Part shown: positions 10,001 to 24,796 of the stretch, one piece after another
Layout of the letters: each line of letters begins with the position of its first letter
Position numbering within the stretch: the first letter of the stretch is position 1
The notes under the pieces: generated by a model
Told to the model about the DNA's origin: nothing
The model's input: the letters and a program-made list of their open reading frames with translations, nothing else
The model's database searches: none
Program-made: the position numbers and the translations under genes
Assembly (NCBI RefSeq): GCF_000270205.1
Contig: NC_015913.1
Location: forward strand, 1,588,006 to 1,620,005
Length of the DNA: 32,000 bases
DNA from: Candidatus Arthromitus sp. SFB-mouse-Japan
Lineage (GTDB): Bacteria; Bacillota; Clostridia; Clostridiales; Clostridiaceae
Direction of reading: 5' to 3'

Positions 10001-11320
10001 ATGGATAATAAGATTTCACCAAATAATATAGAATCAGAACAAACACTATTAGGTGCAATGATAATACATAAAAATACCATTCATGAGATACTAGACAATA
10101 TAAATGTGGATGATTTTTATAAAGATGTGCACAAAAATATTTTTAAAACTATAAAAAAGATGTTTTTAAAAGATATACATGTAGATTTAATTTCTCTTAT
10201 TGAATATTTAAAGAAAGATTCTCTATTAGAATTATCTGGTGGAGCATTATACATAACTGATATATCAAATTCAATAGCCACAATTGCCAATATACAAACA
10301 CATATCAAAATAGTTAAGGATAATTCCATACTTAGAAAACTTATCAAAATTTCTAATGATACTCTCGAACGTATTTATAAAAAAGAGGATCCCAATCTAT
10401 TAATAGAAAATATACAAAAAAGTGTATTTGATCTCTCAATATCAGAAACTAAATCTGATATTGAACCACTTAATAACATATTAGATAGAACAATTAAACA
10501 CATTGAAAATTTATATGTTAATAATTTATCTTTTGTTGGATTATCCACAGGGTTTTATGATTTAGATATAAAATTATCTGGATTACAAAAATCCCAAATG
10601 ATATTAATAGCTGCAAGACCATCTATGGGAAAAACTACTTTTGCTTTAAATATAGCTGAAAATGTAGCAATTAAAGAAAATAAAACTGTACTTATATTTT
10701 CTCTTGAGATGAGTAAGGAACAATTAACTAGTAAATTAATATCATCAATAACAAAAATTAATATACAAAAACTTCAAACGGGAAATTTAGATGATTCTGA
10801 TTTAGATAGATTAGTTAAAGGCACAGAAATTATATCTAAAGCAAAAATATATATCGATGATACCCCTAATATATCAATAACAGAAATGAGATCAAAATGT
10901 AGAAAACTTAAATTTTCTACCAACATAGATTTAATAATTATAGATTATCTTCAACTTATGAGTGGAAATACGAGAAATGAAAACAGACAGCAGGAAGTTT
11001 CAGAAATATCTAGATTCATAAAAGCATTATCGAAAGAAATTAATTGTCCTATAATTGCATTATCCCAGTTATCCCGTGCTCCAGAGCAAAGATCTGATCA
11101 TAGACCAATGTTATCTGATTTGCGTGAATCAGGATCTATTGAACAGGACTCTGATATAGTAATGCTCCTATATAGAGATGAATACTACAATAAAGATACA
11201 GAATATAAAAATATTGCTGAATGTATAATTGCAAAACACAGAAATGGTGAAGTTGGAAACATAAAACTTGCATGGATAGGTCAACATTCAAAATTTGCAA
11301 ATCTAGATAATAAACATTAA
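10001..11320 (+). CDS. dnaB: Replicative DNA helicase (DnaB family; called DnaC in B. subtilis nomenclature)
   Basis: N-terminal PNNIESEQTLLGAMI, Walker A ARPSMGKTTFALN, Walker B LIIIDYLQLM, and SQLSRAPEQRSDHRPMLSDLRESGSIEQDSD. Start moved to ATG 10001 (GAAGGA 10 nt upstream). Confidence 0.95.
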   Translation: MDNKISPNNIESEQTLLGAMIIHKNTIHEILDNINVDDFYKDVHKNIFKTIKKMFLKDIHVDLISLIEYLKKDSLLELSGGALYITDISNSIATIANIQTHIKIVKDNSILRKLIKISNDTLERIYKKEDPNLLIENIQKSVFDLSISETKSDIEPLNNILDRTIKHIENLYVNNLSFVGLSTGFYDLDIKLSGLQKSQMILIAARPSMGKTTFALNIAENVAIKENKTVLIFSLEMSKEQLTSKLISSITKINIQKLQTGNLDDSDLDRLVKGTEIISKAKIYIDDTPNISITEMRSKCRKLKFSTNIDLIIIDYLQLMSGNTRNENRQQEVSEISRFIKALSKEINCPIIALSQLSRAPEQRSDHRPMLSDLRESGSIEQDSDIVMLLYRDEYYNKDTEYKNIAECIIAKHRNGEVGNIKLAWIGQHSKFANLDNKH

Positions 11321-11350
11321 AGGGAGTATTCAAAATTGAATACTCCCTTT
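11319..11350. terminator. Bidirectional intrinsic terminator (dnaB / RlmH-like operon)
   Basis: Perfect 14-bp stem aaagggagtattca / tgaatactcccttt with a 4-nt loop. It overlaps the dnaB stop codon and is flanked by A/T runs. Confidence 0.8.
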
Positions 11351-11383
11351 AATGTTTTTAAAAATATACTTTATCAGTATAAA

Positions 11384-11773
11384 TTACTTATGATATGGTT
11401 CATTATTGATTATTTTATATGATCTATATATTTGCTCCAATACAATTAAAAACAATAAATCTATATCTACATTAAAACATACAAAACAAATATTATGATA
11501 TAAATTAGATGTTCCAAAAACAATATTAATATTTTTTATTCTATCCATACTTTTAAATCTTATAATATTACTAAATTCAATAGAATCCATATACTCTCCA
11601 TCTATTGATATATTAATATTATACGAATCACTCTGATCAAACAATTTACTATTTAAACAATAATAAATATTAATCTTTACAAACTTGTCAATTCTTCTAA
11701 AATAATCCATTATTGCAGGAAATAAATCAGAATTCCTTAAGTCCTTCTTATTTAAAAATAAATTTATCCTCAT
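11384..11773 (-). CDS. RlmH-like SPOUT protein, degenerate copy B (SAM loop and knot loop lost, C-terminal tail conserved)
   Basis: 129 aa. It aligns end to end with RlmH (MRINLFL..., DYFRRIDKFVKINIYYC, INISIDGEYM). GGxxG is replaced by FGTSNL and the (T/L)PH loop is deleted. The C-terminus LEQIYRSYKIINNEPYHK is near consensus. The start overlaps the upstream stop as ATGA. Confidence 0.6.
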   Translation of the reverse strand: MRINLFLNKKDLRNSDLFPAIMDYFRRIDKFVKINIYYCLNSKLFDQSDSYNINISIDGEYMDSIEFSNIIRFKSMDRIKNINIVFGTSNLYHNICFVCFNVDIDLLFLIVLEQIYRSYKIINNEPYHK

Positions 11774-12159
11774 TTATAAAACATCTCATTTATAAATTTC
11801 AATGCAATTAACCTAAATATCTGATGTGGATACGTAAAACTACTTAACCTAATTGTATAATTACACTTAGTCTTTATTTCATTACATACCCCTTCACTAC
11901 CACCAACTATAAAATAGATATTTTTATTAATATTCTTAAGTTTATTAATTTCACCTAAGTCTCTGACACCATTTACATCAAACAATACATATAAACTATC
12001 CTTGTTCTTATTTATTATATTCAATATACTCTTACTCTCTAAGATTCTATCACTTTCTTTTATAGTTATTAAATCAACAGAACCTTTATAATATTTCTCT
12101 GATTTCTTAAAATAATCTTTCAATGTACCAACAGAAATTAAACTTACCTTCCGCAACAT
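11770..12159 (-). CDS. rlmH: RlmH-like SPOUT methyltransferase, copy A (SAM/knot motifs retained, C-terminal tail missing)
   Basis: 129 aa. It retains KVSLISVGTLKDYF, FIVGGSEG and SSFTYPHQIFRL as in 23S rRNA m3Psi1915 methyltransferase. It ends at ...KFINEMFYK without the YR...PYH(K/R) tail. An MBL hydrolase followed by rlmH matches Firmicutes synteny. Confidence 0.7.
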   Translation of the reverse strand: MLRKVSLISVGTLKDYFKKSEKYYKGSVDLITIKESDRILESKSILNIINKNKDSLYVLFDVNGVRDLGEINKLKNINKNIYFIVGGSEGVCNEIKTKCNYTIRLSSFTYPHQIFRLIALKFINEMFYK

Positions 12160-12641
12160 TTCTTATATTTTTTACCACTACCACATAAACACAATTCATT
12201 TCTTCCAATTTTTATACTATTTACTACAACTTTAGATGATCTCCATTTGGTTGTAATTTCTTTAATCTTATCACTAGATAAAATATCCTTCCATTCTTGT
12301 AAATTGAATAAATAATCAGCTTTAGCATCCAACATATTAAAATATAATTTTTCCACATCAATATTAAAATCTATTTCATCATTTAATGTAATATTTTCTA
12401 TATCTACATTCGTATTTAAACTCTCACTTATACCATCAACAAACCCTACTATAAATTCCTCACTTATACCATATTTCTTAGATAATTGACTAATACTAGA
12501 GGTAAATCTAAAACTTTTATTCCCAAGTATATCCTTATAAATTTTTAATTCTACACTTTTATACTCATTCCAAAATACTGCTTCACCTTTTGTCTTAACG
12601 AATTCAGTAACCATATTAGTCCATTTATCATATAAATTCAT
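12144..12641 (-). CDS. SEC-C metal-binding motif protein
   Basis: The C-terminus NELCLCGSGKKYKKCCGR is the SecA-type zinc-binding SEC-C motif. AGAGGTG SD upstream. The 3' end overlaps the next gene by 16 nt. Confidence 0.8.
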   Translation of the reverse strand: MNLYDKWTNMVTEFVKTKGEAVFWNEYKSVELKIYKDILGNKSFRFTSSISQLSKKYGISEEFIVGFVDGISESLNTNVDIENITLNDEIDFNIDVEKLYFNMLDAKADYLFNLQEWKDILSSDKIKEITTKWRSSKVVVNSIKIGRNELCLCGSGKKYKKCCGR

Positions 12642-12664: not shown

Positions 12665-12823
12665 TTAATCCATTACAATATATTTTGCATACTTATTGCA
12701 ATAATTACAATAATTATTATCCCTATCAAATTCAATATTCGGAACTAATTCATATGTGTTAATAAAATCATCAATAACATAACCTATATGTTCCTCACAT
12801 GAACAATATATATTATCTATCAT
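12665..12823 (-). CDS. Small CxxH/CxxC protein (BA_5709 / YyzF-like family); not in the ORF track
   Basis: I translated it manually as MIDNIYCSCEEHIGYVIDDFINTYELVPNIEFDRDNNYCNYCNKYAKYIVMD* (52 aa). It has an N-terminal CxxH (CEEH) and a C-terminal CxxC (CNYC). It starts 5 nt after the MBL-hydrolase stop, the position this family usually occupies. Confidence 0.7.
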   Translation of the reverse strand: MIDNIYCSCEEHIGYVIDDFINTYELVPNIEFDRDNNYCNYCNKYAKYIVMD

Positions 12824-12828
12824 TATAC

Positions 12829-13608
12829 TCAAAACCTCATATAATTACTTGGTAAACTTCTGTGTGCAATAGTTAACTTCAAATCTTTTCCAATTTTCAT
12901 ACCATGATTTAAAATAATTTTTTCTGAAGTTTTGTATGCAAGTTCAGGAAAATTACTTGTAATACTTAAATGTCCCAAAATAACTCTTTTATAAGATATT
13001 TCTGCTAATTTAACTATCGTTAATGCGCATTCCTCATTTGACAAATGCCCATGATCACTAAGTATTCTTTCTTTTAAAAAATAAGGATAATTACTAAGTC
13101 TAAGCATATCTTCATTATAATTACTCTCAATCAATATCACATCTGAATCTTTTATATTATCAAAAACATCCTTTGACATATAACCAATATCAGTAGCTAT
13201 ACTCAACTTTTTTGTTCCATCTAAAATACTATAGCCAATTGGATCAACAGCATCATGAGGTAATTTAAAGGTTCTAATATCTAAATCACCAATCGAAAAT
13301 TCTTTATTATCTATTATGTTTATTCTTTCTACACCTTTTAATTTATCCTCAATATTTTTAAATGTCAATTCATTTAAATACAATGGAATATCTAAACTTT
13401 TACATACTACACTGGCTCCTTTATAATGATCTAAATGTTCATGCGTTATTAATATACCACTAATTAAATTAGGTTTCACATTAATCATATTAATAGCATT
13501 TAATAATGATTTTTTTGATATTCCTATATCTATTAAAATATTTGTTCTATCACTTCCAACAAAAAAACAATTACCAGAACTACCACTACTTATAGAACAA
13601 AATTTCAT
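12829..13608 (-). CDS. MBL-fold metallo-hydrolase (YycJ/WalJ-like)
   Basis: HxHxDH motif (ILITHEHLDHYKG) plus downstream His/Asp ligands (DHGHLSN). 259 aa. GGGGGT SD. Confidence 0.9.
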   Translation of the reverse strand: MKFCSISSGSSGNCFFVGSDRTNILIDIGISKKSLLNAINMINVKPNLISGILITHEHLDHYKGASVVCKSLDIPLYLNELTFKNIEDKLKGVERINIIDNKEFSIGDLDIRTFKLPHDAVDPIGYSILDGTKKLSIATDIGYMSKDVFDNIKDSDVILIESNYNEDMLRLSNYPYFLKERILSDHGHLSNEECALTIVKLAEISYKRVILGHLSITSNFPELAYKTSEKIILNHGMKIGKDLKLTIAHRSLPSNYMRF

Positions 13609-13624
13609 TTTACCCCCAGATAAA

Positions 13625-14911
13625 TTATATTATATTTTTAAATTCCTTAATATCACTTCTGTATTCTCTATATATATTAGCACCCAATTTCCTAAATTTT
13701 TCTTCTATATGAGGATATCCCCTATCTATATGTTTTATTGAAACTATTTCTGTAGTTCCCTCTGCCACTAATCCAGCTATAATCATAGCAGCCCCAGCTC
13801 TAAGATCTGTAGCTCTAAGCTTACATCCCGTAAGCCTATTTACTCCATTTATAATAGCAGCTCTTCCCTCAATCTTAACATTTACCCCCATTTTCTTTAA
13901 TTCATCAAAATATTTAAATCTATTTTCAAATATACTCTCACTTATAATACTAGTCCCTTCAGAAATACTCATAAGGACACCTATTATTTGTTGTACATCA
14001 GTTGGAAATCCTGGATATGGCGCAGTTTTAATATTTACGCCTTTCAAACGTTCAACACTTTTAACCAAAATACTGTCATCATATTCAAAAATAGTTACGC
14101 CCATTTCTATAAGTTTTGCTGTTATGGACTCTAAATGCTTTGGTATTACATTTTTAATCAATACTTCCCCTGTACAAGCTGCAGTTGCCATCATGTATGT
14201 AGATGCTTCTATTTGATCTGGTATTATTGAATAATTACATCCTAAAAGTCTATTAACACCAGTTATTTTTATAATATCTGTACCTGCACCTTTTATATTT
14301 GCTCCCATTAAATTCAAAAAATTCGCGACATCAACAACATGTGGTTCTTTTGCAACATTTTCAAGAACAGTAACTCCATCTGCAAAACATGCTGCTAACA
14401 TTACATTTATAGTTGCCCCTACACTTACCACATCAAAAAATATATTATTCCCAACCAATTTATCAGTTTCAGCAATCACTGATCCATGTTCAATCCTAAT
14501 ATTAACACCAAGTTTCTCCAACCCTCTTATATGTTGGTCTATAGGACGATCACCTATGCTACAACCTCCTGGTAAATCTACGATTGCTTTCTTAAATCTT
14601 GCTAATAGCGCACCTATTAAATAATAAGAGGCTCTCATATTATGTACATCATCACTATCAGCTCGATAACTTTGTAAATCAGAGTTATCTATTATTAATG
14701 TATTATTTATTTTTCGTACATTAGATCCCAAAGTCCTCAATATTCTCACTAATTTATTTACATCTTCTATATCAGGCATATTATCTATTACACAAATTCC
14801 TTCACTACACATAACTGTAGCTGGTATCACAGCAACTGCTGCATTCTTCGCACCACTAATTTCTATACTTCCATAAAGTGGATTAGATCCATTTATTATA
14901 ATCTTTTCCAT
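13625..14911 (-). CDS. murA: UDP-N-acetylglucosamine 1-carboxyvinyltransferase
   Basis: The N-terminus [26 protein letters not shown] and the active-site loop [14 protein letters not shown] (catalytic Cys present) identify MurA. 428 aa. Confidence 0.95.
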
Positions 14912-15000: not shown

Positions 15001-15029
15001 ATTCTAATTTTATTGGTGTTTTTTGTCAA
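15001..15029 (-). promoter_or_regulatory. Candidate sigma-A promoter of the murA operon
   Basis: On the minus strand: TTGACA (15029-15024), 17 nt spacer, TAGAAT (15006-15001). It lies about 85 nt upstream of the murA ATG. Confidence 0.5.
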
Positions 15030-15454: not shown

Positions 15455-15955
15455 ATGAAATATATTATTAAGTGTGGACTTACAGATAATTCTATAAAAG
15501 ACTTAAAATATTTTGAACATAAAATTTCAAAAAAATATAATCAAATAAAAAATAAAAATATATTTTACGTACCATTAATTAGCTTTAATTACAATGATTA
15601 TATTAAATTCAATCCACAGTTATTAAAAAAACTACAAAAATTTCAAACATTCAGAATTAATGTATCTGATATTAAATTTCAAAATAAAATAGTTTATTTA
15701 CTTATAAAACCTCTTGGTTTCATATCATCAATACAGAGGTTGTTAGAAGAATATTTTATAACCAATAATATTAAGTATAGTAAACTGAATAAATGGGATT
15801 ATTTATTCATAGAATATACAACTATCAACAAACTGAATATAAATATAGATGATTTATTTTTCCCATCATATATAAAGATTTCATCAATAAATATATTTAG
15901 AGAAAATAGCAAAAAAAATACTCCAATAGAATCCATAAATTTAAAAAATATATAA
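15455..15955 (+). CDS. Hypothetical protein (166 aa); weak pattern resemblance to a catalytically dead 2H phosphoesterase/LigT fold
   Basis: A long ORF in a stop-rich AT genome. No signal peptide or TM segment. Strand-turn elements FYVPLISF (about residues 37-44) and DYLFIEYT (about 115-122) sit where the two HxT/S motifs of 2H enzymes lie, but both His are absent. The nearest GGAGGA is 27 nt upstream, so the SD is poor. Confidence 0.55.
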   Translation: MKYIIKCGLTDNSIKDLKYFEHKISKKYNQIKNKNIFYVPLISFNYNDYIKFNPQLLKKLQKFQTFRINVSDIKFQNKIVYLLIKPLGFISSIQRLLEEYFITNNIKYSKLNKWDYLFIEYTTINKLNINIDDLFFPSYIKISSINIFRENSKKNTPIESINLKNI

Positions 15956-18559: not shown

Positions 18560-19552
18560 ATGAGTTTATATAAATTAACTTCTCCATTTGTAAACTACAC
18601 TTTAATCGATAATAGTTTTATTGATAATTTTTTACCTACTGCTCGTGGAGAGTATGTGAAAATATATATCCTTATTCTCAAATACGCATCTTCTGGAGAG
18701 CTAGGATTCAATACATCTTTTATTGCTAAAACTCTTAATTTATTAGAATCTGATGTCAAAAATGCTCTTAATTATTGGAATGATTTAGGATTAATAAAAA
18801 TTTCAACATTAGACAATAAAATTTCTAATGTTGAATTTAATCAATTATCAGAATCAAATAACTATACATCATCCTTAAATTTAATAGATCAAATAAATGA
18901 TAACAATCTTATAGATTTTTTTAGAGATATTGAAACAACTATAGGTAGACCACTATCACAAAAGGAAATGGAAACATACATAAATTGGACCAAAAATTAT
19001 AAATTTTCATATGAATTAATTCTCTACTTAATAAGTTATTGCGTAAATAAAAATAAAAAAGATTTTAGGTATATAGAAAAGGTTGCCATTTCATGGTCTG
19101 ATTTAAATATTAATACCCTTGATCAGGCTATGGTGTATACAGAAAAAAGAGAGAAACAATTTTCTAATATAAAAAAAATACTGAATTATATAGGATTAAC
19201 TGATACTGAAATTAGCAAACCTCATGAAGAATTATTTAATAAATGGCTTATAACTTATAATATGCCCCTAGAACTAATTTATAAAGCATGTGACATATGC
19301 TGTTCAAAATTATCAAAACCTGATCTAAATTATATTGATGGTATATTAAACAACTTTAAAAATTCAAATATATTTTCTCTTAAAGATTTGGAAAAATATG
19401 AATCAAATAAAAATTCAATATCAAAAAATTTTTCAAATAAATCTATTAATAAAAATTCATTTTCAAATTTCCCGCAAAGAGACTATGACTATGAGAAACT
19501 TGAAAAAATATTGACTCAAAATAACTATGAAGGAAATAATACAAATGATTAA
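18560..19552 (+). CDS. DnaD-domain replication initiation / membrane attachment protein (B. subtilis DnaB/DnaD-like)
   Basis: DnaD-type C-terminal repeats (FRYIEKVAISWSDLNINTLDQAM; LNYIDGILNNFKNSNIFSLKDLE). It lies directly upstream of, and overlaps, a DnaI-like loader gene. Confidence 0.85.
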   Translation: MSLYKLTSPFVNYTLIDNSFIDNFLPTARGEYVKIYILILKYASSGELGFNTSFIAKTLNLLESDVKNALNYWNDLGLIKISTLDNKISNVEFNQLSESNNYTSSLNLIDQINDNNLIDFFRDIETTIGRPLSQKEMETYINWTKNYKFSYELILYLISYCVNKNKKDFRYIEKVAISWSDLNINTLDQAMVYTEKREKQFSNIKKILNYIGLTDTEISKPHEELFNKWLITYNMPLELIYKACDICCSKLSKPDLNYIDGILNNFKNSNIFSLKDLEKYESNKNSISKNFSNKSINKNSFSNFPQRDYDYEKLEKILTQNNYEGNNTND

Positions 19553-20531
19553 AGGATATGGTGAAAAATTAAATAATTTATATCAAGAAATAAGATCGAA
19601 TAATTTAAAAGAACATATTAAAAGATTAGAAAATGTATATAACATTAATCCAGAATTAAGAACCTTAAATAATAATATAAAAAAGTTAACATTTCAATTA
19701 ATAAAATCAAATAATAATATCACATCAAATCAATTAAAAATAAAAATAAATGAAATAAGAAGTAGACTTAAAACCATATTAAATAACTTAAATTTTCCAG
19801 ATAATTATTTGGATAATATTTATAATTGCAATATGTGTAATGATACTGGGTATATATTAAATGAAAAATGTTCTTGTTTAATAACAAATCTAACTAAACT
19901 TTACTTAAATGACTCAGAGCTAAAATTATCTATACTAAAAAATAATTTCGAAAATTTTAACTTTTCTTTTTATTCTGACAATATCACTCAAAACAACAAA
20001 ATATCACCAAGTAATAATATAAAAAACATATACACTAATATTTTAAATTATATAAAAACATTTAAAACAAATAAATTAAATTTACTATTTAATGGAGAAT
20101 GTGGAAGTGGTAAAACCTTTATGACTCATTGTATAGCTAAAGATTTATTAGATAAAGGATATTCAGTACTATATAAAACTTCTGAAGATTTATTAATAGA
20201 ATTATTCCATTACTACACTAATAAAAATGTAAATAATTTTAATGAAAATATTAATGATTCATTTCTAATGCAATGTGATTTACTTATAATTGATGATCTA
20301 GGTACAGAGAACCAAAACAAATTATATAACTCAATTCTTTTTAATTTTATTAACAAAAAATTAATGTTGGATAAAAGAATGATTATTTCTACTAATTTTA
20401 CCCTTAGAGATTTACAGCAAACATATTCTGATAGAATATTTTCTCGTATTGTAGGAAACTTTAGAATTCATAACTTTTTCGTTCATGAAGATATACGAAT
20501 TCAAAAACAACAGATTAAGAGGGAGGGATAA
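19545..20531 (+). CDS. Helicase loader ATPase (DnaI/DnaC, IstB-like AAA+)
   Basis: N-terminal Zn motif CNMCNDTGY...CSC, Walker A NGECGSGKTF, Walker B LLIIDDLGTE. I prefer ATG 19545 (AAGGA 10 nt upstream; ATGATTAA overlap with the upstream stop) over the track start at 19527. Confidence 0.85.
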   Translation: MIKGYGEKLNNLYQEIRSNNLKEHIKRLENVYNINPELRTLNNNIKKLTFQLIKSNNNITSNQLKIKINEIRSRLKTILNNLNFPDNYLDNIYNCNMCNDTGYILNEKCSCLITNLTKLYLNDSELKLSILKNNFENFNFSFYSDNITQNNKISPSNNIKNIYTNILNYIKTFKTNKLNLLFNGECGSGKTFMTHCIAKDLLDKGYSVLYKTSEDLLIELFHYYTNKNVNNFNENINDSFLMQCDLLIIDDLGTENQNKLYNSILFNFINKKLMLDKRMIISTNFTLRDLQQTYSDRIFSRIVGNFRIHNFFVHEDIRIQKQQIKREG

Positions 20532-23150: not shown

Positions 23151-23171
23151 AAGGTGGTGTTTAAATTTAGT

Positions 23172-23948
23172 ATGAAAAAAATATGTGTGTTTAATCAAAA
23201 AGGTGGTGTTGGTAAAACAACTACTAATATTAATTTGGCTAGTTATCTGTCTTTAGAAGGTTTTAAAACCCTAGTTATTGACATGGATCCTCAGGGTAAT
23301 GCTTCTAGTGGTTTAGGTGTTGATAAAAACAAATTCAATTGGTCAATGTATGATTTATTTGTCTATGATAGAGATATTAACTCATTAATAATTGAAAGTG
23401 ATATAATTAAAAATCTATATCTCATCCCTTCTAGTATAAATCTTGCTGCAGCAGAAGTAGAGTTAATTAATATCAAAAACAGAGAATTCCTGTTGAAAGA
23501 ATATATTGCCAAATTAAATAATTCTTTTGACTTCGTTTTTATCGATTGTCCGCCTTCTTTAGGCTTTTTAAGCTTAAACTCTTTGGTTGCTAGCGATAGT
23601 CTTATAATTCCTATACAATGTGAGTTTTATGCTTTAGAAGGTTTAAGTCAATTAATAAATACGATAAATCTGGTTAATCAATCTCTTAATAAGTCTCTCT
23701 ATATTGAAGGAGTTATTCTTAATATGTTTGATTCACGTGCAAAGCTTAGTAATGAAGTTGTATCTGAAGTTAATAAATTTTTTAAGGATAAAGTGTATTC
23801 CACTATAATCCCTAGGAATATTAAACTCGCTGAATCTCCTAGCTATGGCCTTCCTATTATGTTGTATGATGAAAAATGTAAAGGCGCCATTTCTTATAAA
23901 GCTTTAGCTAAAGAATTCATTTTCAAACAAAGGAGAAGTGGTCTATGA
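23172..23948 (+). CDS. parA: Chromosome partitioning ATPase ParA/Soj
   Basis: Deviant Walker A (NQKGGVGKTTT), DMDPQGNAS, and FDFVFIDCPPSLG. I prefer ATG 23172 (protein begins MKKICVFNQKGG) over the track GTG at 23154. Confidence 0.95.
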   Translation: MKKICVFNQKGGVGKTTTNINLASYLSLEGFKTLVIDMDPQGNASSGLGVDKNKFNWSMYDLFVYDRDINSLIIESDIIKNLYLIPSSINLAAAEVELINIKNREFLLKEYIAKLNNSFDFVFIDCPPSLGFLSLNSLVASDSLIIPIQCEFYALEGLSQLINTINLVNQSLNKSLYIEGVILNMFDSRAKLSNEVVSEVNKFFKDKVYSTIIPRNIKLAESPSYGLPIMLYDEKCKGAISYKALAKEFIFKQRRSGL

Positions 23949-24796
23949 AAAAAAATGTTCTAGGTAAAGGATTGAATTCTCTAATACCGAATTATGAAAA
24001 TAAAAATTCTGATCCTAATAATTATACCCTCTTAAATATTGAATTACTATATGCTAATGTTAATCAACCTCGCAAACATTTTAATGATTCTAGTTTGCAC
24101 GACCTAAGTAAATCCATCGAAATTCATGGAATAATTCAACCACTAATTGTTAGTGAATCTAATGGTAAATATTTGATAGTTGCTGGTGAGCGCAGGTATA
24201 GGGCAGCTAAAATAATAAAACTTGATAAAATACCATGTATAATTATTGAAAAATCTACTGATGAGATACTTGAATTATCTCTTATAGAAAACATACAAAG
24301 AGATGATTTAAATCCAATAGAAGAAGCTAGGGCATTCAAAAATCTTATAGACAATTTTAATATTACTCATGAATGTCTGTCAGAAAAATTATCTATTTCA
24401 AGAACTTCTATAACCAATAAGCTAAGATTATTAAAATTATCTTCTATAGTTCAAGATTATATATTAAATGAAGATATAACAGAGGGGCATGGTAAAATTT
24501 TAGCTGGAGTAAAAGATGAACACCTTCAGATAGAAATATCTAATAAAATAATAGATGAAGATCTTAATGTGAGACAAACGGAAAAATTAATTCAATCTAT
24601 ATTCTCAAAACCTAAAGAAAAAATTAACTGTAAAAATGATGTATATATAAATGATTTGAAGCTCAATTTAGAAAACTATTTTGGAACAAAAGTATCAATA
24701 CATAACAAAAAAAATAAAGGTAATATTCAAATAGAATATTACTCAGTAGAAGATTTAAATAGAATATTAGATTTAATATATTCAAAAGACGTATAA
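23945..24796 (+). CDS. parB: Chromosome partitioning protein ParB/Spo0J
   Basis: ParB box GERRYRAAK, QPLIV, LIENIQRDDLNPIEEA, and an HTH region. The ATGA overlap with parA indicates coupling. Confidence 0.95.
   Translation: MKKNVLGKGLNSLIPNYENKNSDPNNYTLLNIELLYANVNQPRKHFNDSSLHDLSKSIEIHGIIQPLIVSESNGKYLIVAGERRYRAAKIIKLDKIPCIIIEKSTDEILELSLIENIQRDDLNPIEEARAFKNLIDNFNITHECLSEKLSISRTSITNKLRLLKLSSIVQDYILNEDITEGHGKILAGVKDEHLQIEISNKIIDEDLNVRQTEKLIQSIFSKPKEKINCKNDVYINDLKLNLENYFGTKVSIHNKKNKGNIQIEYYSVEDLNRILDLIYSKDV

Follow-up and report, generated by a model that had tools for sequence, protein, structure and literature searches.

Can two adjacent genes, each of which has lost a different half of the functional residues of a homodimeric enzyme, together encode one working enzyme? 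The question is raised by a pair of short open reading frames (ORFs) in Candidatus Arthromitus sp. SFB-mouse-Japan, a member of the segmented filamentous bacteria (SFB). The pair lies in a stretch of 32,000 nucleotides of contig NC_015913.1 (positions 1,588,006 to 1,620,005), which was analysed as a whole and is referred to here as the window. Both ORFs belong to the family of the ribosomal RNA methyltransferase RlmH, and their residues suggest that they probably form an obligate heterodimeric RlmH with a single composite active site, making 3-methylpseudouridine 1915 (m3Psi1915). An earlier note on this DNA, made from the letters alone, had described two ORFs of 129 amino acids (aa) with an ATGA overlap, and this is what we find, both on the minus strand:

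11770..12159, minus strand: rlmH-A (SFBM_1489), 129 aa, proposed subunit binding S-adenosylmethionine (SAM)
11384..11773, minus strand: rlmH-B (SFBM_1488), 129 aa, proposed tail donor, not binding SAM
11770..11773, minus strand: ATGA stop/start overlap of A and B, a junction of the translational-coupling type

RlmH, also known as YbeA, YydA or OrfX, is canonically a single protein of about 155-160 aa, and its substrate, pseudouridine 1915 (Psi1915), is made by rluD. The canonical enzyme is a homodimeric 23S rRNA m3Psi1915 methyltransferase, and the E. coli dimer is functionally asymmetric (Koh et al. 2017, PMC5430550), with the SAM pocket coming from one of the monomers, the C-terminal tail from the other. 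The pocket consists of three bights (D73/I74, 103-GGPEG-107 and L122-H129), and physiological SAM fills only one of the two sites, the dissociation constants being 5.6 uM (KD1) and ~1 mM (KD2) (PMC5430550). The RNA-binding patch is likewise divided, with K11, K42 and R43 on the SAM-side monomer and R25, R26, R142 and R154 on the tail-side monomer. Mutants E138A/Q, Y152F, H153F and R154A are inactive while still dimerising and binding SAM, R142A lowers kcat/KM at least 30-fold, and tail-side mutants retain their binding to ribosomes, where they are competitors of the wild-type enzyme (PMC5430550). The tail itself is widely conserved among 5,000 RlmH sequences (PMC5430550).

Reciprocal losses in two RlmH homologues

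Membership of both proteins in this family is supported by profile and structural comparisons. A matches Pfam PF02590 (SPOUT_MTase, RlmH family; COG1576) with 50.4 bits (E 3e-13) over positions 20-138 of the 154 in the hidden Markov model (HMM), and B with 41.9 bits (E 1e-10) over positions 64-154, both above the gathering score of 27 bits; the N-terminus of B aligns with residues 11-47 of B. subtilis YydA. Compared directly by BLASTP, A and B have no detectable similarity (E 0.9). Their AlphaFold2 models reached mean confidence values (predicted local distance difference test, pLDDT) of 91.6 for A and 93.2 for B, and in a Foldseek search of the PDB the top 15 matches were all RlmH chains for both models, at template modelling (TM) scores of 0.74-0.86. 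The structures matched were 1TO0, 1NS5, 1VH0, 4FAK, 1O6D and 5TWJ, with best TM scores in the range 0.75-0.86 for A and 0.76-0.83 for B. The homology of A and B to RlmH thus lies well outside chance, and the models confidently predict the minimal SPOUT alpha/beta-knot fold for both.

Which parts of the enzyme does each protein keep? All motifs that the earlier note had quoted are present, namely KVSLISVGTLKDYF, FIVGGSEG, SSFTYPHQIFR and the end ...KFINEMFYK in A, and IVFGTSNL and LEQIYRSYKIINNEPYHK in B. In terms of E. coli RlmH, A retains the N-terminal xG.LK motif, LFDvNG (bight 1, with D73), GGSEG (bight 2) and FTYPHQIF (bight 3, with T126 and H129). It is without the R25/R26 segment, E138, R142 and the Y152-H153-R154 tail, a wider loss than that of the terminal segment which the note had described. 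B retains DYFRR (R25/R26) and LEQIYRSYKIINNEPYHK, which holds E138, R142, Y152, H153 and K154, and has neither the xGK motif nor the glycine loop, T126 or H129. The loss of the glycine loop had been noticed before; the proline-histidine (PH) loop, described as deleted, is instead substituted, VDID standing in place of FPHQ. What B has truly had deleted is a stretch of some 7-9 residues immediately behind the place of the old glycine loop and another of about 20 in the alpha2 region. Helix alpha4 is deleted in B, and in the models B has no counterpart of the short helix behind the glycine loop of A.

The same division is seen well beyond this one genome. We mapped 273 non-redundant sequences on E. 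coli RlmH numbering, including A-types (21 from SFB and 12 others) and B-types (18 from SFB and 136 others). The pocket residues G103, G104, G107, T126 and H129 are 100% conserved in A-types and lost in B-types, and the N-terminal xGK..K motif is found in 91-100% of A-types as against 3-5% of B-types. The opposite holds for the (E/D)Y.(K/R)R motif with R25/R26 (4-16% of A-types, 97-100% of B-types) and for K154, which is absent in most A-types and present in 98-100% of B-types. R26, E138, R142, Y152 and H153 are 100% conserved in B-types. SFB A-types have R26 deleted and both E138 and R142 lost (E138 is mostly kept in the other A-types), and the C-terminal tail is absent in ~90% of SFB A-types and in most other A-types. 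The dimer-patch positions 122, 125 and 127 are hydrophobic in both types.

Taken together, A and B hold the full set of RlmH functional residues. As read from this alignment, the losses are reciprocal, and the residue split follows the monomer roles defined for E. coli RlmH. Particularly telling are E138, Y152 and H153, which are needed for catalysis and not for ribosome binding and yet are invariant in proteins without a SAM pocket; they would therefore act on the SAM of a partner.

Conservation in SFB and recurrence in other lineages

In SFB the two genes are kept together. Homologues of A stand in the same place at 82, 73 and 70% identity and in two deep lineages at 37 and 45%, each of them followed by a homologue of B. 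None of the six sequenced SFB loci is without the pair, which is traceable, whole and in synteny, to 37-50% identity. Four other SFB lineages (L012, L013, L016 and L025) have ATGA or GTGA at the junction between the two genes, and in a further one (L024) the overlap is 26 nucleotides (nt). Profile searches returned about 30 A-like and about 30 B-like clusters belonging to the SFB clade, with 11 further A/B cluster pairs in which both members have the same longest contig.

Both genes are under purifying selection across SFB. The ratio of nonsynonymous to synonymous substitution rates (dN/dS; Nei-Gojobori, non-saturated pairs) ranges from 0.11 to 0.30 in A and from 0.17 to 0.33 in B, well below the value near 1 that the earlier note had named as a sign of neutral evolution, and in a codon bootstrap at most 4 of 500 replicates reach a ratio of 1. 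These ratios are similar to those of small neighbouring genes. Although dS exceeds 1 between deep lineages, both ORFs are open in every SFB lineage examined. Sporadic disruption of one copy in relatives had been named there too, and one apparent case was encountered, a truncated B variant (P0019). It was rejected as a real disruption, since nearly every gene on its contig is fragmented (murA, dnaB, lon and most others among them), which marks it as an artefact of an error-ridden assembly. Several shorter database entries for A or B (P0015, P0307 and others) were likewise set aside as disruptions; they reflect alternative start calls or contig ends.

Is the arrangement restricted to SFB? A profile of the B-type was searched against 1.84 billion representative proteins, and 106 of the 141 new top hits, each representing a cluster at 50% identity, proved to be B-type: proteins of 123-148 aa without glycine loop and PH loop and with an intact tail. 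The family thus counts at least 106 such clusters, many of them from human-gut metagenomes (P0163-P0303, L029-L108). We also scanned metagenome contigs with a DNA pattern for the short spacing from EYxKR to EQIYR, which is typical of the B-type; the pattern places no constraint on the neighbours. The scan yielded 59 B-type loci, equal to 19 genuine clusters at 70% identity, one misclassified canonical sequence having been removed before counting. In 8 of the 19 clusters there is an RlmH-like neighbour inside the fetched locus, and in 7 of these 8 it is a tail-less A-type with GGSLG and FPHQ, ending directly before the stop codon in, for example, ...LILIEQLSYL, ...MLLDQLQIICDM or ...VLMEQIESAVKL. 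The remaining neighbour is a nearly canonical RlmH with the altered tail YHTQP (L037). One more lineage is represented by loci L023 and L026, where a 152-aa A-type ending in ...LLEQIYHVLQIK before its stop codon is followed by a B-type gene. A tail-less A-type beside or near a B-type is thereby found in eight lineages besides SFB, and the arrangement is not peculiar to the SFB-mouse-Japan genome. The earlier suggestion of a division of labour, drawn from the complementary losses in one genome, gains support at the level of sequence from the clade-wide conservation, the residue split and this recurrence.

The layout of the pairs outside SFB is diverse: tandem with a 4-nt overlap, convergent with 3' overlaps of 10-17 nt, convergent with 80 nt between them, or separated by 0.9-2.9 kb. 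Convergent tail-less A and B genes with 3' overlaps of 10-17 nt were seen in several of these lineages (L042, L068, L082, L090, L104, L074, L079, L095, L067 and L073). Such an overlap is unusual for two subunits and excludes translational coupling, and it might entail an interplay of antisense transcripts. An abundant human-gut species, with a B of 136 aa and a tail-less A of 148 aa, has two configurations, with a distance between the genes of ~0.9 kb where their strands are opposite and of ~2.9 kb where they share a strand (L029, L033, L038, L040, L047, L056, L069, L070, L084, L087, L097 and L103), which suggests an invertible or rearranged segment between A and B. In L037 (2689-3692) the B-type gene is convergent with, and 116 nt from, a gene for a 161-aa RlmH that keeps E138, R142, Y152 and H153 and ends in ...AYHTQP, with R154 changed to T; this RlmH may represent an intermediate state in which the partner has yet to lose its tail. 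Finally, a protein of 139 aa on a 16-kb contig from an unrelated, GC-richer lineage (P0159), met with in the profile search for A, is RlmH-like and tail-less, has the SAM loops and ends in ...LTFPHALFRLAAIEMIAGIRRG.

These observations bear on the origin of the pair. A neighbour-joining tree sets all 154 B-types apart in a single, exclusive bipartition, and exactly this split recurs in 63 of 100 bootstraps. By raw distances, however, the SFB B proteins are as far from other B-types as from canonical RlmH or farther, and long-branch attraction may have affected the tree. The B-type family is apparently of single origin, to judge by the tree. A recent local tandem duplication is probably not the source of the A/B pair, because there is no detectable similarity between A and B and because SFB B groups with B-types from outside SFB. 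For the tandem duplication proposed in the earlier note, a recent local event is not required, B belonging to a large family.

A proposed composite site and the competing explanations

How would the two proteins work together? In the canonical homodimer, the knotted SAM pocket of one subunit and the alpha1 arginines, E138, R142 and Y-H-R/K tail of the other together make a single working site. In SFB this asymmetry of the dimer would have become fixed genetically in two genes. A keeps only the pocket side, with its three SAM bights and the lysine patch at the N-terminus, and B only the tail side with R25/R26, E138, R142, Y152, H153 and K154, such that A:A and B:B would be inactive and only A:B would have one complete site. 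The ATGA junction would favour equimolar synthesis of the two chains. Association of A with B, activity of their complex and an unchanged target, Psi1915 of 70S ribosomes, are presumed. The engineered SPOUT heterodimer NHR works although one of its subunits is dead (PMC4409310), hence a single competent site can be enough for an enzyme of this fold. We further lean, if only slightly, towards regarding the SFB pair as part of a widespread two-subunit RlmH of Firmicutes, in which one ancient B-type lost its pocket, retained the catalytic tail and came to be indispensable to the resident RlmH, whose own tail, by then redundant, was lost independently in many lineages, in the manner of a constructive-neutral-evolution ratchet.

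Several findings weigh against this heterodimer model. Both proteins miss the NCBIfam RlmH equivalog cutoffs of 141-242 by a wide margin, the best scores being 46.6 bits for A and 43.8 bits for B, and the multiple sequence alignments behind both AlphaFold2 models held canonical RlmHs, which may have biased the models towards the RlmH fold. The dN/dS of murA and dnaB is 0.005-0.07, pointing to looser selection on A and B. In a rat-type SFB represented by one Logan contig of 5180 bp (P0018), B is frameshifted after ...KNINIF. No RlmH-like neighbour was found within 3-5 kb of the B-type gene in L020, L021, L035, L036, L099 and L094, where the partner, if there is one, would be encoded elsewhere in the genome, and the nearly canonical RlmH that adjoins the B-type gene in L037 makes adjacency to a tail-less partner common and not universal.

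Some of these points would suit other explanations. It is conceivable that A is a self-sufficient, divergent homodimer, in which other residues have taken over the chemistry of the tail, and that B is an independent, non-catalytic ribosome- or helix-69-binding factor or regulator, not paired with A at all. The SAM pocket of A is complete, some B-type genes have no adjacent RlmH gene, and since E. coli tail-side mutants bind ribosomes (PMC5430550), a B-like protein could plausibly bind alone. However, A-types have short and variable C-termini that bear no relation to one another from lineage to lineage, and no substitute catalytic motif is visible in them; E138, Y152 and H153, which serve catalysis and not binding, are 100% conserved in 154 pocket-less B-types; and tail loss is specific to RlmH genes beside a B-type (7/8), in a family whose tail is otherwise widely conserved. 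We therefore consider independent action of A and B unlikely. An A:B heterodimer with a changed job, whether another RNA target or chemistry or a tuning or inhibition of methylation by B, seems improbable to us as well. All residues of m3Psi chemistry are kept between the two subunits and 100% conserved, each half of the two-part RNA patch sits on the appropriate subunit, and the locus is the ancestral position of rlmH, even if the distance of both proteins from the equivalog cutoffs, the internal deletions in both (parts of the RNA-binding surface in the K42/R43 region included) and the case of L037, in which B could be an accessory partner of a nearly canonical RlmH, would be in keeping with a new role.

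The two remaining explanations would deny the pair a function or its separate existence. The SFB genome is reduced (1.59 Mb, ~25% GC), the two copies are short, without canonical motifs and under the equivalog cutoffs, and they evolve faster than neighbouring core genes, all of which would be expected of decaying remnants of a tandem duplication. Against decay stand ORFs that are open in every SFB lineage despite saturated synonymous sites, dN/dS values of 0.11-0.33, a precise and reciprocal conservation of motifs, the same pattern in unrelated lineages, and the fact that the sole disruption checked (P0019) is an assembly artefact; this makes decay very improbable. Nearer still to negligible is the idea of a single rlmH broken in two, whether by a frameshift or through an error in sequencing or assembly, to which the abutting ORFs, with their 4-nt overlap and change of frame, might at first point. 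The parts of PF02590 that the two ORFs cover (20-138 and 64-154) overlap, and each ORF has its own N-terminal strand and helix, so that each is a whole, shortened RlmH homologue and not half of a frameshifted gene, as the earlier note had also held. An assembly artefact was rejected in turn because exact copies recur in many independent assemblies: identical A and B proteins are encoded on the finished SFB-mouse-Japan chromosome AP012209.1, and the index of the assembly collection lists identical sequences in 175 blocks for A and in 139 for B, many independent metagenome assemblies among them. The junction is, moreover, conserved in divergent lineages. A heterodimeric RlmH remains the explanation that we prefer.

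Known systems, wider meaning and the surrounding genes

How does such a pair compare with what has been described? With canonical RlmH it shares the PF02590 family, the predicted minimal alpha/beta-knot fold and a neighbourhood of the yycJ/htrA type. It differs in that canonical RlmH has both pocket and tail in the product of a single gene (about 155-160 aa), whereas SFB have two genes of 129 aa with half each, and in that the SFB homodimers are predicted from their residues to be dead. Paralogous RNA-modifying heterodimers of a catalytic and a non-catalytic subunit are familiar from METTL3/METTL14, Trm61/Trm6 (m1A58) and ADAT2/ADAT3 (Tad2/Tad3). Trm6/Trm61 and Tad2/Tad3 have been cited as such in a 2007 survey of the SPOUT superfamily (PMC1829167). 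In systems of the Trm61/Trm6 type a homo-oligomer was duplicated, one paralogue keeping the pocket and the other losing it while still being needed to bind the substrate or complete the site, and traits of this kind can be read from the A and B sequences, namely two paralogues co-conserved clade-wide and a B without cofactor-binding motifs. Those systems are, however, eukaryotic and built on the Rossmann or deaminase fold, whereas the SFB pair is bacterial and a SPOUT knot; here, too, the pocket-less B would carry the catalytic residues E138, Y152 and H153, and A would carry the cofactor.

Within the SPOUT superfamily, the dimer of wild-type nosiheptide-resistance methyltransferase (NHR) with its R135A mutant resembles the SFB pair in that a dimer with one competent site can methylate (PMC4409310), but it is artificial and its subunits are identical but for a point mutation, unlike a natural two-gene system. 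A closer parallel in concept is the yeast pair Ygr283c/Ymr310c (COG2106), for which a SPOUT paralogue was suggested as an inactive heterodimer subunit (Tkaczuk et al. 2007, PMC1829167). This was the only earlier suggestion of its kind found in the literature searched; it is speculative, concerns eukaryotes and another SPOUT family, and no reciprocal partition of residues was described. The same 2007 survey stated that inactive members of the superfamily had not yet been reported and named only this speculative yeast candidate (PMC1829167), and the word 'heterodimer' is absent from a 2022 review of the superfamily. Our literature searches (by locus tags, for an RlmH heterodimer or paralogue, and for heterodimeric SPOUT enzymes) returned no description of such a pair, in line with the earlier note, and no natural heterodimeric SPOUT enzyme or SPOUT pseudoenzyme subunit. 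What we describe would be a two-subunit form, so far undescribed, of an enzyme family that is itself known.

If this is true, the pair would be the first heterodimeric SPOUT methyltransferase known from nature and a natural genetic dissection of a composite site, with cofactor and catalytic residues on separate chains. The composite-site model rests on a single study, structural and mutational, of the E. coli homodimer, and the A/B split appears to give it independent support while offering a clean system in which the two roles could be mutated separately. The repeated loss of the partner's tail beside a B-type would also make it possible to study how complementary degeneration turns homomers into obligate heteromers. 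There is a practical side to this as well. RefSeq and UniRef name both SFB proteins RlmH, database labels being 'hypothetical' or plain 'RlmH', and at least about 100 B-type clusters (50% identity) are probably mis-described as stand-alone methyltransferases. SFB are immunologically important and very hard to culture, which makes a conserved peculiarity of their translation apparatus of interest in itself.

The genes around the pair are consistent with an inherited rlmH locus. On the minus strand the order is murA, YycJ-like, YyzF-like, SEC-C protein, A and B, with A upstream of B:

11313..11356, minus strand: hairpin resembling a terminator (20-bp stem), in the gap that separates the stop of B from the convergent dnaB
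12144..12641, minus strand: SEC-C-motif protein, 165 aa, upstream of A, its final 16 nt overlapping the start of A
12665-12832, minus strand: YyzF-like protein, co-directional with A and B
12829-13608, minus strand: YycJ-like metallo-beta-lactamase, co-directional with A and B
13625-14911, minus strand: murA, co-directional with A and B
15001..15029, minus strand: best sigma-70-like promoter match TTGACA-17-TAGAAT (11/12) upstream of murA, a consensus match only

The string murA/yycJ-like/yyzF-like upstream of A and B is the classical Firmicute neighbourhood of rlmH. A yycJ-htrA-...-rlmH context is seen also in loci L023 and L026, and htrA adjoining rlmH has been reported for Gram-positives (PMC12826053). 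The hairpin 3' of B is likely, by its sequence, to mark the end of the operon, and the TTGACA-17-TAGAAT site is a possible operon promoter; sigma-70-like matches in the region are no more numerous than shuffling predicts.

Several features of SFB loci were noted in passing. The frameshift in the B gene of the rat-type SFB (P0018) lies at about the same place as that in the artefactual P0019, in an A/T-rich stretch that may be prone to sequencing errors or may be a real slippage site. The SEC-C protein has its zinc-binding SEC-C motif at its end; its position is kept in all SFB lineages examined (dN/dS 0.06-0.23), and its gene is absent from the A/B loci outside SFB. In the deep SFB lineages the gene order downstream of the pair varies: L024 (6758-8959) has about 2.2 kb without a called gene between dnaB and a gene for a helix-turn-helix (HTH)-cupin protein, and a yyzF-like gene is lacking there, while in L025 (5614-8693) ribonucleotide reductase genes occupy the place where dnaB stands elsewhere. 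Further along the window, an ORF of 166 aa on the plus strand (15455-15955), between an S8 peptidase gene and a DUF1540 gene, has no Pfam match and is conserved in place throughout the SFB lineages fetched. At 18560-20531 and 23154-24796, both on the plus strand, there are a DnaB_2 (DnaD-like) gene accompanied by a helicase-loader gene of the IstB/DnaA-ATPase-like (DnaI-like) type, and a parA-parB pair, that is, replication and partition genes near the replicative helicase gene dnaB.

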